Virus record (IMG/VR): IMGVR_UViG_3300018483_000003
Span: 1-6,609 of that record
DNA length: 6,609 nucleotides
Strand: one strand, 5' to 3'
Origin: a virus
Taxonomy: Duplodnaviria; Heunggongvirae; Uroviricota; Caudoviricetes
Translations under genes and position numbers: made by a program
Shown here: positions 535 through 5,321 of the stretch, in pieces
How positions within the stretch are numbered: position 1 is the first letter of the stretch
Layout of the letters: every line of letters begins with the position of its first letter
Notes under the pieces: generated by a model
Seen by the model: the letters and a program-made list of their open reading frames with translations, nothing else
Database searches by the model: none
Told to the model about the DNA's origin: nothing

Positions 535-873
535 CTATGACCATTTTTTATTTGGATTTCGTTGGTGAGCATGATTAACAACTCTGTGCATTACATCCTC
601 ATATTTTTCATCTTCAATTTTTTCGACATCGCGAGGAAATGGTGTTGCTAATGCTTTGTCAACTTTATCCATTGGGTCTTCATTAATCTTATATTCAGGA
701 CCGTCATCTATAGCATTAAATCCAGGTGTTACACCGTTTTTTAATGCATATGCTATCCTCTTTTCCCATCTCGCTATTCTCCTCCTGTCTCGAGATGTAA
801 GACCTCTATCAGATACTTTTCTGTTTTGTCCGCGGTCAGGATTAACATAAATAGTCTTTTTCACCATAAGCAT
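535..873 (-). CDS. Hypothetical highly charged protein (112 aa from ATG 873; 114 aa if the TTG at 879 is used)
   Basis: ORF in the six-frame track. The ATG at 873-871 lies 2 nt after the N stop codon (TGA, 878-876), suggesting translational coupling; no strong SD. Product is rich in R/K/D/E and I recognise no family. AT-rich, and followed directly by a terminator. Confidence 0.55.
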   Translation of the reverse strand: MLMVKKTIYVNPDRGQNRKVSDRGLTSRDRRRIARWEKRIAYALKNGVTPGFNAIDDGPEYKINEDPMDKVDKALATPFPRDVEKIEDEKYEDVMHRVVNHAHQRNPNKKWS

Positions 874-875
874 AC

Positions 876-1181
876 TCAATAAGCACCGTACGGTAGTTTA
901 CTGTACAATTTTATTTTTTGGACTGCATGTATTTTGTTTCCTAATGGGTTTGAATCCTTGTAATAAATACTTCTATTTTTTCGAACGACTTCTTCTTTCT
1001 TCTTGCAGCAAAGGCTTCCTAGTGAAGCTGCTTTGTCTGCTCTGACGCAACCAGAGAGCTTTAGCGCAATTTTTCGCGCTAGTGCTTCATTACTGCGTCG
1101 CTCGGCAATAAGTTCTGCTCTGCGAGCTTTGTAGCGGCTTTTTGCCGTACCTTTGGATTCTTTCCAGACAATGGTTACCAT
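876..1181 (-). CDS. N: N-type transcription antitermination protein (phage-21-like arginine-rich motif)
   Basis: ATG at 1181-1179 with AAGGAG (complement of 1188-1193) 6 nt upstream. The N-terminus MVTIVWKESKGTAKSRYKARRAELIAERR contains the arginine-rich motif I recall for phage 21 N. The gene lies downstream of boxA/boxB elements and a pL-like promoter. The track ORF extends to 1211 but the longer start lacks an RBS. Confidence 0.8.
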   Translation of the reverse strand: MVTIVWKESKGTAKSRYKARRAELIAERRSNEALARKIALKLSGCVRADKAASLGSLCCKKKEEVVRKNRSIYYKDSNPLGNKIHAVQKIKLYSKLPYGAY

Positions 1182-1291
1182 GATGGTCTCCTTTAAGTGG
1201 CTTTGGCGCATGACGCGTCGAGGTGCTTATCTTCTCGATCGCTGTCTTGCAGCTGCAATTCGCGCCATCCCCAAAACCACTCAAGTTCTGG

Positions 1292-1471: not shown

Positions 1472-1497
1472 AAATAAAAAAGGGGCGAAAGCCCCTT
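1472..1497 (-). terminator. Intrinsic terminator overlapping the cI stop codon
   Basis: Stem 1480-1486 (AAGGGGC) pairs with 1491-1497 (GCCCCTT) around a GAAA loop. On the minus strand it is followed by UUUUUAUUU (complement of plus 1471-1479). It lies at the end of cI (stop 1498-1496) and would insulate pL/oL from pRM/pRE transcription. Confidence 0.65.
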
Positions 1498-2146
1498 AAG
1501 GAAGGTTTGCTAGCTTGGCATCAACGACAACGCCAATGATTTTACAGTTCCCATTGATTTCAATCATTGGGTATTGTGGATTGAGTGGTTTCAGGAATTT
1601 TCTACCGGCATCAATAACTAACTTTTTGAATGTCGCCTCGTTTTCTCCTTCAAGTTTGGCGACTACCAGCTTTCCATTACGTGGTTCGACTTCTGGGTCG
1701 ACGAGAATAATCATCCCCTCAGGAATACTCAGTCCTGCCGGGGCAGTCATTGAATCGCCTTTAACGTCGAGCCAAAAAGAGTCTTCAGAACAATCTACCG
1801 TTGTGTCGTACCAGTTATCTATTGCACGCCTATGATATGGCTCTACAGCTTCCATCCAACATCCTGCGCTTACCCAACTAATTAGAGGATACGAACCTCT
1901 TGGATCATGCCTGCTGTGATAGGCAATGTTTGAAAGACTATCCTCTCCTTTCAACAGGTAATCAGGGGAGCACTGCAAAGCCTTGGCTAAGGCCAATAGG
2001 TTTTCGCCATTGGGCTCAGTTTCAGATCGCTCCCATTGGGAAATAGCAACATTAGACACGCCAACCATCTTGCCAAGGGCAGCCTGCCTAATCTTGAGTT
2101 CTTTTCTGCGAGCGCGAATACGCTCACCCATCAGTTGTGTATTCAT
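1496..2146 (-). CDS. cI: CI-type prophage repressor (HTH_XRE N-terminal domain plus LexA/S24-like autocleavage domain; P22 C2-like)
   Basis: 216-aa ORF. HTH motif QAALGKMVGVSNVAISQWE; C-terminal domain with an Ala-Gly cleavage site (VSAGCW), catalytic Ser in GDSM and Lys in KLVVAK. Nearly identical, from memory, to the P22 C2 repressor. Divergent from cro across an operator region. Confidence 0.9.
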   Translation of the reverse strand: MNTQLMGERIRARRKELKIRQAALGKMVGVSNVAISQWERSETEPNGENLLALAKALQCSPDYLLKGEDSLSNIAYHSRHDPRGSYPLISWVSAGCWMEAVEPYHRRAIDNWYDTTVDCSEDSFWLDVKGDSMTAPAGLSIPEGMIILVDPEVEPRNGKLVVAKLEGENEATFKKLVIDAGRKFLKPLNPQYPMIEINGNCKIIGVVVDAKLANLP

Positions 2147-2226: not shown

Positions 2227-2412
2227 ATGTACAAAAAAGATGTTATTGACCACTTCGGAACCCAGCGTGCTGTTGCTAAAGCACTAGGCATTAGCGATGC
2301 AGCAGTCTCTCAGTGGAAAGAAGTTATCCCAGAGAAAGACGCCTATCGATTGGAAATCGTTACAGCTGGCGCCCTGAAGTATCAAGAAAGTGCTTACCGC
2401 CAAGCGGCATAA
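2227..2412 (+). CDS. cro: Cro repressor (61 aa, P22-Cro-like HTH protein)
   Basis: ATG at 2227 with GGAG (2216-2219) upstream. HTH motif QRAVAKALGISDAAVSQW. The sequence matches, from memory, P22 Cro almost exactly. First gene rightward of pR. Confidence 0.9.
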   Translation: MYKKDVIDHFGTQRAVAKALGISDAAVSQWKEVIPEKDAYRLEIVTAGALKYQESAYRQAA

Positions 2413-2419
2413 GCAAATT

Positions 2420-2459
2420 GCTCTTTAACAGTTCTGGCCTTTCACCTCTAACCGGGTGA
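2420..2459 (+). promoter_or_regulatory. nutR: boxA (2420-2428) and boxB hairpin (2442-2459)
   Basis: boxA GCTCTTTAA is identical to the nutL copy. boxB is UCACCU-CUAACC-GGGUGA, a 6-bp stem (one G-U pair) with the same CUAACC loop as nutL. It lies between the cro stop (2412) and cII. Confidence 0.7.
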
Positions 2460-2509
2460 GCAAACATCAGCGGCAAATCCATTGGGTGTGCCGCTATAAC
2501 TCAATATCA

Positions 2510-2550
2510 ATATAGGAAAATTAACAAATGGCACAAGCAAGCTACAGCAA
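2510..2550 (-). promoter_or_regulatory. pRE-like CII-activated promoter (TTGC-N6-TTGC motif inside the cII 5' end)
   Basis: Plus strand has GCAA(2537-2540)-N6-GCAA(2547-2550), which is TTGC-N6-TTGC on the minus strand, the CII tetramer site architecture of lambda pRE. A -10-like TATATT follows on the minus strand (about 2512-2517). The position overlapping the cII start matches lambda. Confidence 0.55.
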
Positions 2551-2824
2551 GCCAACACAGCGAGAAATTGATCGCGCTGAAACTGATTTACTCATCAACC
2601 TGTCAACGCTTACCCAGCGCGGTCTGGCAAAGATGATTGGCTGTCATGAATCGAAGATAAGCAGAACGGACTGGAGATTTATTGCTTCGGTTCTGTGTGC
2701 TTTCGGAATGGCATCAGACATCAGTCCGATTAGCAGGGCTTTTAAGTATGCGCTTGATGGACTCACAAAGAAAAAATCCCCGGCTGCCACCGAGGATTCT
2801 GAGCAAATTGATATGCAATTCTGA
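2528..2824 (+). CDS. cII: CII-like transcriptional activator (98 aa)
   Basis: Sits between nutR and the replication genes. The C-terminus KKKSPAATEDSEQIDMQF resembles the lambda CII C-terminus as I recall it (KKRPAATERSEQIQMEF). The central region is HTH-like and the pRE motif is embedded in its 5' end. Confidence 0.75.
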   Translation: MAQASYSKPTQREIDRAETDLLINLSTLTQRGLAKMIGCHESKISRTDWRFIASVLCAFGMASDISPISRAFKYALDGLTKKKSPAATEDSEQIDMQF

Positions 2825-2856
2825 GGTAATTACTGGATCAATCCACAGGAGTAATT

Positions 2857-3003
2857 ATGACAAAACAACTCAGTCCTTACCAGGACAAAATTCACAAACA
2901 CATACTACGTGATCGCTTCCTGTCCAGCTTCAAGCAGCCTGGTCGATTTCGGGCTGAGTTGGAAAAGGTGAAGCTGATGCAGAAGGAGAAAGGTCATGAG
3001 TAA
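2857..3003 (+). CDS. Possible small basic protein (48 aa) between cII and the O-like gene
   Basis: ATG at 2857 with GGAG (2848-2851) 5 nt upstream. Product [48 protein letters not shown]. Its stop (3001-3003) overlaps the O-like start (2996) as ATGAGTAA. Not in the supplied track because of its length. I recall an orf48 annotated at this position in P22, which if correct supports it. Confidence 0.4.
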
Positions 3004-3895
3004 CATATCTAATCTAGCCGAAGCCAGAGAGGCCAGAAGGCTACAACAACCGCATCAAAGCAGCGGTAAGGGGTATGCCTTGCTGCACCGTAAAATTATG
3101 GATGTGCCGTTTTACAAGGACGCAGAAGCAGCGCATCTGTGGGTTCACTTAATCCTCAAAGCAAAGCATACGCCTGAGTATGTAATGACTGACGCAGGAG
3201 AAATTCTGGTAGGCAGAGGGAAGCTACTTGGCGGTAGAAACTCTCTGGCGTTTGAAACAGGACTCAAACCAGATCGCGTTCAGTACCTGCTTAGAAAGTT
3301 CAAAAAACTCGGCATGATTGACTGGGTTTCACACGGTAAATTCTCAGTTTTCTCGGTAGAGAAATATGACGATTATCAGTCAAATTTTGTACCAGCAGAT
3401 TACCAGCAAATTACCACCTCAAAGCCAGCAATACCAATGCCTGCAAGCAATACTGTACCAGCAGATTACCAGCAAATTACCACAGATAAAGAATATAATA
3501 ATATTATCTCTAATACTGACGTATTAGAGAGTGCCACAGCAGACAAAAAGTCTGACAAGAAAAAACCTTCCGTTAGCTGTCAGGATGTTGTCGATGCTTA
3601 CCACGAAATCCTTCCTGAAGCGCCAAGAATCCGCGCACTGAATGACAAGCGTAAAAACCAGATCCGAACGTTCTGGCGCAAAGCCGGAGTGATAACCCGC
3701 CAGCTTGACGGGCATGGGTTCACGATGCAGGACTGGAGAAATTATTTGAGCTACGTAGGCGAAAATTGCCGATGGATGTTCGAAGAGCGCCCAAACCATC
3801 AACGCGGAACCGTCTGGCACAAAAAGGGATTTGATTTCCTGCTTAACGACAATACCTACCTGAAAGTTCGTGAGGGTGAACACGATGACCGATAA
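2996..3895 (+). CDS. Replication initiation protein (lambda O / P22 gp18 analogue) with DnaT-like C-terminal domain
   Basis: 299-aa ORF with AAGGAG (2983-2988) 7 nt upstream. It occupies the O position directly upstream of a DnaB-family helicase and contains internal iterons plus an AT-rich tract. The C-terminal region ([17 protein letters not shown]...WRKAGV) resembles DnaT/primosomal-type loader domains as far as I can recall. Confidence 0.8.
3389..3530. repeat. Iteron-like direct repeats plus AT-rich tract inside the O-like gene (putative ori)
   Basis: An identical 29-bp sequence GTACCAGCAGATTACCAGCAAATTACCAC occurs at 3389-3417 and 3455-3483. Each copy holds three TACCA(G/C) motifs at 11-bp phasing (3390, 3401, 3412 and 3456, 3467, 3478). 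An AT-rich tract follows at 3484-3530 (GATAAAGAATATAATAATATTATCTCTAATACTGACGTATTAGAG). Confidence 0.6.
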
Positions 3896-5321
3896 TTTTT
3901 ATGCGCCGCCCCATAGCATCGAGGCAGAGCAGGCGGTGATTGGTGGATTGCTTCTGGATGATGACAGCAGTGAGCGCGTCCAGAAAGTTCTGGCGATGCT
4001 GAAGCCTGATTCATTTTACGGCCGACCACACAAAATCCTTTTCGAAGAAATAACCAGAATGCACCGGGAGCAAAAGCCAGTAGATGGCCTGACGCTTTTC
4101 GATGAACTGGAGCGTAAATCGTTAACGGCGTCTGTTGGCGGTTTTGCTTATATCGCTGAGATCGCAAAAAACACGCCAAGCGCAGCAAACATCGTTGCCT
4201 ATGCAATGCAGGTTCGTGAAACCGCAATGGAACGCTACGCCATAAACCGCATGACTGAAGCGACGGAATTGCTCTATTCCCGCAACGGAATGACTGCAAC
4301 GCAGAAGTACGAAGCTATTCAGGCGATTTTCACGCAACTGACAGACCATGCAAAAACCGGATCGCGTCGCGGCCTTCGCTCATTTGGTGAGGTCATGGAA
4401 GACTGGGTTAGCGACCTTGAGAAGCGATTTGACCCGTCAGGCGAACAACGAGGAATGAGCACGGGGATCCCATCGCTGGACAGGATGCTGTCACCGAAAG
4501 GTCTGGTGAAAGGCTCTCTGTTTGTCATTGGCGCTCGCCCTAAGATGGGGAAAACGACGCTATACAGCCAGATGGCAATCAACTGTGCAGTGCATGAGAA
4601 AAAGCCTGCTCTGATGTTCAGCCTTGAAATGCCAGGTGACCAGATACTGGAAAAACTGGTAGGGCAGAAGTCAGGTGTTAACCCGAATATTTTTTACCTT
4701 CCGGCGACAAATGACGCTGATGACGGCTATCAGGGTGATTACGATGGTGACTTCAACAGGGCGATCGAAACAGCCAATCGCTTGAGTGAAATCGACATGC
4801 TTTACATCGACGACACGCCGGGATTATCTCTGGCTCAAATCGTCAGCGAAAGCCGTCGAATCAAGCGAGAAAAAGGATGTGTTGGCATGATTCTGGTCGA
4901 TTACCTGACACTAATGACCGCTGAAAAGGCCGATCGCAACGACCTTGCTTACGGCATGATCACCAAAGGACTGAAGAACCTTGCCAAAGAGCTTGATTGC
5001 GTTGTTGTGCTTCTGACGCAGCTTAACCGCGCATTGGAAAGCCGAACCAATAAACGCCCATTACCAAGTGACTCGCGAGATACAGGGCAGATTGAACAGG
5101 ATTGCGATTATTGGGTTGGGATCCATCGGGAAGGTGCTTTTGATGACAGCGTTCCTCCTGGTGAAACCGAACTAATCCTTCGCCTCAATCGTCATGGCAA
5201 TACCGGCACGGTGTATTGCATACAGGCAAATGGCGCTATTTATGACACAGACCAACAGTCTGCTGAAATGCGCCGCCGTGAACGCGAGGAACCGCAGTCC
5301 AAGAAGAAAGGAGGATTCTGA
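3885..5321 (+). CDS. DnaB-family replicative DNA helicase (478 aa)
   Basis: ATG at 3885 with GAGGGTG (3872-3878) upstream, overlapping the O-like stop by 11 nt. N-terminal DnaB signature PHSIEAEQAVIGGLLLD, Walker A GARPKMGKTT and Walker B-like MILVDYLTLM. GTG codons at 3870 and 3876 are possible alternative starts. Confidence 0.9.
   Translation: MTDNFYAPPHSIEAEQAVIGGLLLDDDSSERVQKVLAMLKPDSFYGRPHKILFEEITRMHREQKPVDGLTLFDELERKSLTASVGGFAYIAEIAKNTPSAANIVAYAMQVRETAMERYAINRMTEATELLYSRNGMTATQKYEAIQAIFTQLTDHAKTGSRRGLRSFGEVMEDWVSDLEKRFDPSGEQRGMSTGIPSLDRMLSPKGLVKGSLFVIGARPKMGKTTLYSQMAINCAVHEKKPALMFSLEMPGDQILEKLVGQKSGVNPNIFYLPATNDADDGYQGDYDGDFNRAIETANRLSEIDMLYIDDTPGLSLAQIVSESRRIKREKGCVGMILVDYLTLMTAEKADRNDLAYGMITKGLKNLAKELDCVVVLLTQLNRALESRTNKRPLPSDSRDTGQIEQDCDYWVGIHREGAFDDSVPPGETELILRLNRHGNTGTVYCIQANGAIYDTDQQSAEMRRREREEPQSKKKGGF

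Follow-up and report, generated by a model that had tools for sequence, protein, structure and literature searches.

Between cII and the replication initiator gene of a lambdoid phage lies an open reading frame (ORF) of 48 amino acids (aa), and this locus raises the question of whether so short a frame is a gene at all and, if so, which of its neighbors it serves. The ORF is found in a stretch of 6,609 nucleotides (nt) from viral record IMGVR_UViG_3300018483_000003, which we call the window:

2857–3003, plus strand: 48-aa ORF, ATG to TAA; homologue of P22 orf48 and HK620 hkaW, family DUF2740 (PF10872)

An initial annotation of this DNA had placed a basic 48-aa ORF at this position, and both the frame and its basic character are borne out (12 K+R versus 6 D+E, pI 10.1, charge about +5.8). 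Our overall reading, which we favor with moderate confidence, is that the ORF is a known DUF2740 gene, that it forms the first cistron of the replication module, and that its product plays an accessory role in trans. On its own, the feature re-discovers a catalogued gene; its value may lie in a pattern across replicon types that offers a testable lead.

The 48-aa ORF is a catalogued phage gene

The predicted protein covers the whole Pfam model of DUF2740 (PF10872, positions 1–43 of 43; E = 8.9e-29) with a score of 99.4 bits, above the curated gathering cut-off of 27, and it matches the PHROG 1913 profile at E = 2.7e-28. Its position is also that of the family, directly upstream of an O/gp18-type initiator gene and overlapping it, within a lambdoid early-right operon. 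Homologues were detected by tblastn in 127 phage records, with 100% identity in HK620 (hkaW), HK022, HK630 and several Shiga toxin (Stx) phages, 85% identity to P22 orf48 and 58% to the copy of an Erwinia phage. Sequence comparison thus equates the ORF, with near certainty, with P22 orf48, HK620 hkaW, mEp235 gp43 and Pfam DUF2740. The P22, HK620 and HK022 copies share its length, its place between oop and the initiator gene and the 8-nt overlap, at 85–100% identity, and nothing material sets them apart; the neighbors of the window copy are a cII of HK97 type and an O of HK022 type, as in mEp235.

The gene is already known and is not new. Curated records of P22, HK620, mEp235 (gp43) and the Erwinia phage (ORF62) all annotate it, and the label "DUF2740 family protein" of the Prokaryotic Genome Annotation Pipeline (PGAP) occurs in 400 of 5,426 complete Escherichia coli genomes. 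The description "unannotated" therefore holds for the length-filtered ORF track from which the initial annotation was made, but not for these public records. DUF2740 is also present on 34 plasmid records, most of them phage-sized (~35–50 kb) and non-mobilizable. In the literature on DUF2740, hkaW and orf48 we found no function reported for any family member: the cII-oop-orf-O-P layout has been described, with lambda lacking orf48 (Hayes et al. 2012, PMC3349717), and two papers carry orf48 along in constructs only. The "orf48:gnarl1" of the screens by Silas et al. was considered as the same gene and rejected; it is protein ATI16509.1 of Klebsiella phage KpV79, where 48 is a library index, and the names merely collide.

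RefSeq calls the gene "tail protein" in mEp235 (gp43), HK620 (hkaW) and the Erwinia phage (ORF62), a label apparently derived from the "tail" category of PHROG 1913. The gene so labeled lies at 2857–3003 in the window and, among our sampled loci (numbered with the prefix L), at 2958–3104 in L001, 1501–1647 in L004 and 2001–2147 in L003. In every locus it belongs to the early-right operon, between cII and the initiator gene, rather than to a virion structural module. Because of this genomic context, the label is almost certainly wrong, and its use for DUF2740 is almost certainly a spreading annotation error.

Conservation argues for a protein-coding gene

A frame of 48 codons is unremarkable by chance, as 70 ORFs in the window reach 30 aa or more and several measure 46–48 aa, and the case for a gene therefore rests on conservation. 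We gathered homologues from phage records, GTDB genomes, IMG/VR and metagenome assemblies, the sampled loci being mostly E. coli and Salmonella prophages. Frame conservation and the synonymous substitution pattern across relatives, which the initial annotation had proposed as a check, both speak for coding. None of the 24 distinct nucleotide versions interrupts the frame, and each of the other five frames is closed by stops in 22–24 of the 24. Over the central 30 codons, entropy at codon positions 1, 2 and 3 is 0.32, 0.22 and 0.61, and the pooled ratio of nonsynonymous to synonymous substitution rates (dN/dS, Nei–Gojobori) is 0.21, with pairwise values of 0.10–0.36. Read in either shifted sense frame, the same core gives a dN/dS of 1.6; the wobble-matched antisense frame gives 0.28, yet is closed by stops. 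Relative to the divergent copy in L221, 19.5 of 19.7 synonymous sites have changed while 67% of the core residues are retained, and homologues down to 33–58% identity keep an intact frame of 46–48 aa. Invariant residues are H13, K14, I16, R18, D19, R20, L22, E34, K39 and a C-terminal GHE, the last being invariant because the overlap with the O start forces it. The AlphaFold2 model of the protein is a helical hairpin, with helices at residues 7–23 and 28–44 and a mean predicted local distance difference test score (pLDDT) of 80. The middle of the protein (residues ~12–41, the basic helical hairpin) is under purifying selection, and the ORF is very probably a genuine protein-coding gene.

Conservation might instead act on the DNA, as a recombination linker or a promoter, with the open frame incidental. 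Such a view would fit the identical 147-nt sequence found in 63 of the first 93 loci between highly mosaic flanks, as well as a 5′ end that is constrained as a promoter. It is largely refuted by the codon-position pattern and low dN/dS of the core, by the closure of the other frames and by the persistence of the frame in the most divergent homologues, and we regard it as hardly credible.

The family is narrow and restricted to Enterobacterales, with 17 profile matches (E ≤ 1e-3) among 1.84 billion cluster representatives. No credible fusion of DUF2740 to a larger protein occurs among these 17. Two candidate fusions were rejected: P0060 reads through from c1 into orf48 as a result of a frameshift, and P0059 is an artefact of repeats.

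The small ORF belongs with the initiator gene rather than with cII

The neighbors of the ORF in the window are the following:

2528–2824, plus strand: cII-like activator, upstream neighbor, its 3′ end covered by oop (PF05269, E = 8.6e-35)
2996–3895, plus strand: O-like replication initiator of HK022 type, 299 aa (PHROG 345, E = 9e-88; mEp235 annotation)
3885–5321, plus strand: DnaB-family replicative helicase, analogue of P22 gp12 (PF00772, PF03796; mEp235 annotation)

No P-like or DnaC-like loader gene is present in the stretch read downstream of the window helicase. Across loci, the same small ORF, often identical at the nucleotide level, stands between at least five types of cII and at least eight types of initiator gene, in many combinations. 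In L098 a ParB-like gene, and in L223 a gene of 249 aa, separates it from cII while the overlap with the initiator gene is kept; in L224, which has a YdaS/YdaT-type region and no cII, DUF2740, initiator and DnaB helicase still follow one another in that order. The small ORF thus stays joined to the initiator gene even where cII, oop and the junction that normally precedes it are missing. Since insertions fall upstream, the initiator overlap is retained and cII is dispensable, we place the small ORF at the head of the replication module, as its first cistron, and not in the lysogeny circuit; its membership in that module is quite likely.

These arrangements also bear on a role in the lysis–lysogeny decision, in which the product would work with cII, cIII or oop, for example by stabilizing CII or modulating OOP. 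The ORF does adjoin cII and oop, is co-transcribed from pR, and is similar in size to CIII. However, it is paired with all those cII types, is detached from cII in L098 and L223 and does without cII in L224; lambda has the same cII/oop system without the ORF (PMC3349717); and the ORF tracks replicon type instead. We consider such a role very unlikely. Of the two regulatory roles offered by the initial annotation, the genomic context supports the tie to replication and disfavors the one to lysogeny.

The boundary between cII/oop and the replication genes is a hot spot for accessory-gene insertion: it holds the ParB-like gene of 265 aa (L098, 2973–3770), the 249-aa gene (L223, 3255–4004) and a gene of 214 aa. 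The last starts at the junction ATG itself, in L140 and in about 26 of the loci L225–L304.

The slot before the initiator gene is filled according to replicon type

The start of the small ORF lies in a sequence block conserved in lambdoid phages:

2833–2865, plus strand: conserved lambdoid junction CTGGATCAATCCACAGGAGTAATTATGACAAAA, common to the lambda O start; mosaic boundary of the immunity and replication modules (alignments; PMC3349717)

A scan of IMG/VR for the junction itself returned 120 loci (L101–L220), in which the ATG of the junction opens one of three kinds of frame:

DUF2740 (48 aa): 29 of the 120 junction loci
Unrelated basic 53-aa ORF (PHROG 1331): 43 of the 120 junction loci
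Long gene directly: 42 of the 120 junction loci

What follows differs by class. The lambda-type "direct" loci pair lambda O with lambda P (26/26 scorable), and in the remaining "direct" type O is accompanied by an IstB/DnaC-like AAA+ loader. DUF2740 and the 53-aa ORF precede the same three replicons, all of which encode a DnaB-family helicase or a Toprim-DnaB primase-helicase, and none of the three has a P-like or DnaC-like loader directly after the initiator gene. Every scorable helicase-type junction locus carries a small ORF (about 19 with DUF2740, 27 with the 53-aa ORF), and a small ORF at the junction is found in 0 of 26 scorable lambda O+P loci and 0 of 46 junction-bearing DnaC-type loci. 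The latter come from 80 further DnaC-type loci, which contain neither DUF2740 nor the 53-aa ORF and in which the junction ATG starts O or the 214-aa gene.

Helicase-type replicons were also sampled irrespective of whether they carried the junction or DUF2740. All 77 HK022-type helicase loci have DUF2740 or the 53-aa ORF; so do 56 of the 76 P22-type helicase loci, another 19 of which have an ORF of 86–90 aa, with one locus unresolved. A small ORF therefore abuts the initiator gene in 152 of 153 helicase-type replicons (HK022-type 77/77, P22-type 75/76). This pattern, in which the slot is filled when the phage brings its own helicase and empty when it brings a loader for host DnaB, may be new. 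With the exception of L093, the small ORF and the lambda P/DnaC loaders have a complementary distribution in our samples; the loaders differ in being proteins of 233–245 aa, whereas the 48-aa product has no ATPase domain and no homology to them.

The two alternative ORFs resemble DUF2740 in setting: they start the replication module, overlap the initiator gene by 14 nt or stop 2 nt short of it, and occur with helicase-type replicons. The 53-aa ORF (MTKRRKKYQEKEEIRH...; PHROG 1331, no Pfam family) is basic, overlaps the initiator start by 14 nt (for example in L101 and L105), and gives a fixed N-terminus, MGVVKLADYR, to three different initiator bodies. Compared with DUF2740 by hhalign, it shows no homology beyond 11 residues over the oop promoter pO. 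From its position, it is probably the ORF of about 54 codons that Hayes et al. noted in HK97. The 86–90-aa ORF (PHROG 2519) ends 2 nt before the initiator gene (for example in L395, L407, L414 and L429, among L386–L465). It is weakly similar to helix 1 of DUF2740 (HKEVKRxRFLxSI; hhalign E = 0.002 at a probability of 13%; PHROG 1913, E = 0.006); at its C-terminus it bears a weak similarity to the first ~35 residues of the Phage_rep_O domain, where the N-domain of O begins. It appears to be a conserved chimera in which a DUF2740-like piece is joined to an N-terminal fragment of an initiator, both resemblances being weak.

The same distribution can be set against the view that the gene is a "moron"-like or counter-defense gene, directed at the host, that rides in the immunity/replication slot with no part in replication. 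This would agree with the presence of one allele whatever the types of cII, O and helicase, with alternative alleles at the same slot, with other accessory genes at the boundary (ParB-like, 249 aa and 214 aa), and with the narrow taxonomic range of the family. A passenger, however, would not be expected to overlap the initiator gene so strictly, or to occur in nearly all helicase-type replicons and in none of the junction-bearing loader-type ones, and the inserted morons lie upstream of the small ORF, never between it and O. Scans of the 48-aa protein with PADLOC and NCBIfam gave no match, although the PADLOC library covers defense and not anti-defense. We judge this view improbable.

Both ends of the ORF serve a second purpose

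The 5′ end of the ORF coincides with elements of the oop unit on the opposite strand:

2847–2851, plus strand: Shine–Dalgarno (SD) element AGGAG of the small ORF, 5 nt from the ATG; the same element serves lambda gene O (sequence, lambda alignment)
2854–2882, minus strand: predicted oop promoter pO, over ORF codons 1–9 (homology to the curated P22 record and lambda; read from sequence)
2770–2846, minus strand: putative oop antisense RNA homologue, complementary to the cII 3′ end, two hairpins, the second being the terminator (fold; ends inferred from lambda coordinates)
2773–2800, minus strand: putative intrinsic terminator hairpin of oop, 12 pairs then a T-run, within the cII coding region (hairpin; P22 annotation at the equivalent site)

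The AGGAG with its 5-nt spacer substantiates the good ribosome-binding site proposed by the initial annotation. The predicted pO has an extended –10 element, TGTCATAAT, the complement of 2854–2862, within which the small-ORF ATG lies, and a weak –35 element, TGGTAA, around 2877–2882; with this composition, pO was not called by a simple consensus promoter scan. In the curated record of P22, exactly these bases are annotated as oop promoter, and the oop terminator is put in the c1 3′ end. A transcript from 2846 to 2766 folds like the two-hairpin OOP of lambda (–27.2 kcal/mol, z-score –3.6), and the stretch is 84% identical to lambda. Taken as a prediction from the sequence, the region would hold an antisense unit of about 77 nt with its terminator in the cII 3′ end and its promoter where the downstream gene begins. 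Scanned against Rfam at E ≤ 1, the full window gave no family over oop, only a chance snoRNA-like match; for a homologue that folds this well, the absence of a match suggests that the library has no OOP model.

Over codons 1–11 the dN/dS is about 1 with no third-position excess, which points to constraint on the DNA rather than on the protein there. Since the ATG lies within the –10 element of oop, a start-codon mutation would also alter that element. Codons 6–10 also contain an inverted repeat, GTCCT-TACC-AGGAC (2873–2886), over the –35 region of pO. The repeat contains a CCAGG (Dcm) site, and its core, TACCAGGA, is common to the 53-aa ORF (YQDK versus YQEK); its P22 version, GTCCTGACCAGGAC, is a better palindrome. 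The repeat could be a protein-binding site or simply promoter.

The comparison with lambda is close at this end. The SD element, the ATG and the oop –10 element form the same conserved block at the lambda O start, and oop and its terminator are homologous with a similar fold. The difference lies in what the junction ATG opens: O itself in lambda, but here a gene of 48 codons, O beginning 139 nt further on with an SD element of its own.

At the 3′ end, the ORF carries the start signals of the initiator gene:

2996–3003, plus strand: O-like start codon and small-ORF stop in overlap, ATGAGTAA, 8 nt (sequence)
2983–2988, plus strand: SD element AAGGAG of the O-like gene, in small-ORF codons 43–44, 7 nt before the ATG at 2996 (sequence; conserved across loci)

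The stop of the small ORF is the TAA at 3001–3003, inside ATGAGTAA. As the initial annotation had noted, stop and start overlap: the overlap measures 8 nt in 120 of 123 scorable loci, an architecture that is compatible with translational coupling. The three remaining overlaps were called at 4, 14 and 17 nt (L221, L003 and L223), so that these variants still overlap; the public L003 record annotates 8 nt. A variant in L013, ATGGATAA, retains the same overlap geometry. Predicted mRNA structure around the O start is not significant as a mask (fold z-score –1.35), and the SD element of O is unpaired in the predicted fold. With no significant structure and an unpaired SD element, coupling by termination and reinitiation is possible, and coupling by unmasking of structure is unsupported.

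The double duty of both ends could mean that the ORF works only in cis, as an adapter or leader that houses pO, uses the SD–ATG of the junction and hands ribosomes to the initiator gene, its peptide being inert. Several features are in keeping with this idea: pO covers codons 1–9 and the SD element of O codons 43–44, the stop/start overlap is near-universal, three apparently unrelated ORFs (48, 53 and 86–90 aa) occupy the same slot, each tight to the initiator gene, and each acts as a cassette joined to several O bodies. An inert peptide, however, should be free to vary, and the core outside the overlaps has a dN/dS of about 0.2, its sequence being retained at synonymous saturation. The ORF is moreover kept in loci that lack the junction, oop and cII or have them displaced, the O start has an SD element of its own with no significant masking structure, and loader-type O genes do without any adapter. 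An adapter with an inert peptide is thus unlikely, and a pure leader peptide, which the initial annotation had also raised, is disfavored on the same grounds: neither a free peptide sequence nor a remodeled mRNA structure is seen, and O has its own AAGGAG.

A possible accessory role in phage replication

Our preferred reading gives the peptide a function of its own. We envision that the small ORF would be translated from the conserved SD–ATG junction that drives O directly in lambda, that ribosomes ending the small ORF could re-initiate on the initiator gene, and that the early rightward (pR) transcript would supply both products. The peptide would then act in trans as an accessory factor of replicons with their own helicase. 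A candidate target would be the host DnaB/DnaC pathway, which these phages would not need, and the main alternative would be that the peptide helps to load the phage helicase.

One and the same protein is found ahead of three different initiator/helicase sets. An orf48 allele is common to P22 and phage L, whose replication proteins are 25–29% identical and not interchangeable gene by gene (PMC8022706). Since one allele serves unrelated initiator/helicase sets, a conserved host replication component would be a likelier target than the phage initiator. Pairwise identities of DUF2740 correlate with those of the O N-domain, O C-domain and helicase at rho 0.17–0.29, values that discriminate little because most copies are near-identical.

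A role in trans as a replication accessory, taken by itself, is a tentative proposal that falls a little short of an even chance, and any specific target is doubtful at best. The most specific form of the proposal is that DUF2740, with the PHROG 1331 and PHROG 2519 ORFs as alternatives, is a required accessory protein of lambdoid own-helicase replicons, one that shuts the host DnaB/DnaC route or serves as a minimal helicase-loading cofactor where no P/DnaC-type loader exists; we think it rather unlikely to be right as it stands. Both models are conjecture, and neither has homology support. Blocking the host DnaB/DnaC route, something that only phages with their own helicase could afford, is a plausible model. 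Phage 77 ORF104, a protein of about 52 aa, may serve as a model for such a gene. It is a small phage inhibitor of the host helicase loader DnaI that is genetically coupled to phage replacement of the host factor (PMC4887207). The analogy, to a gene restricted to replicons independent of host DnaB, is functional only: ORF104 has no sequence or fold relation to DUF2740 and comes from another host phylum.

Loading by the small protein itself finds no echo in homology. The protein has no membership in the helicase-loader families (PF06992, PF01695, E. coli DnaC), and a loader-like activity is pure conjecture. P22-type initiators have a DnaB-like helicase to load and no dedicated loader for it, and the 48-aa protein is a candidate for either a helicase-loading or a host-helicase-disabling role. 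If true, either mechanism would explain the 152 filled slots among 153, the empty slots of loader-type replicons and the fit of one allele to any initiator/helicase set.

Several observations weigh against an accessory role in trans. Three different small ORFs fill the slot, so that the act of translating it may matter more than the peptide. The O gene has its own strong SD element and no masking structure, so coupling may contribute little. The independent lineages are few, about 3–6 helicase types versus 2 loader types, and shared ancestry could yield the association. One locus, L093, the sole exception found, has DUF2740 before a lambda-P-type replicon, with E34G at an otherwise invariant residue. 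Fold searches of the 48-aa protein return generic helical hairpins only, with no homology to a solved structure; its hhalign probability is 0.2% versus lambda P and 0.07% versus E. coli DnaC, and it has no Pfam match besides DUF2740. Expression or phenotype data for the gene were not found in the literature.

The L093 locus (IMGVR_UViG_2563366903_000025; ORF at 4001–4147) is also of note for its hybrid O, whose N-terminal 159 residues are 98% identical to a 286-aa O type and whose C-terminal half is lambda O, followed by lambda P.

Other features of the window and of related loci

The 6.6-kb window as a whole is a lambdoid immunity and replication region, ~99% identical to coliphage mEp235 where compared (window 2400–3400). 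Its gene order is Nun-like and N-like genes on the minus strand, repressor, cro, cII, the small ORF, O, helicase and nin-region genes, which adds the following to the features above:

1496–2146, minus strand: P22-c2-type repressor
2227–2412: cro
3383–3483, plus strand: direct repeats within the O-like coding sequence, ~35 nt, internally periodic at 11 nt, encoding repeated PADYQQITT

By analogy with lambda, P22 and HK620, the direct repeats are probably origin iterons. The mEp235 annotation identifies adjacent genes for a Nun-like (HK022-type) transcription terminator (535–879, minus strand) and an N-like antiterminator (876–1211, minus strand) in the same early-left operon. This pairing is unusual, HK022 carrying Nun in place of N.

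Among the related loci, some helicase or primase-helicase genes are 300–350 aa longer than their relatives (L077, 826 aa; L041 and L175, 968 aa; L165, 797 aa), and in L028 and L155 a 164-aa ORF is wedged between O and the helicase gene. These long helicases and 164-aa ORFs suggest intein or homing-endonuclease insertions.

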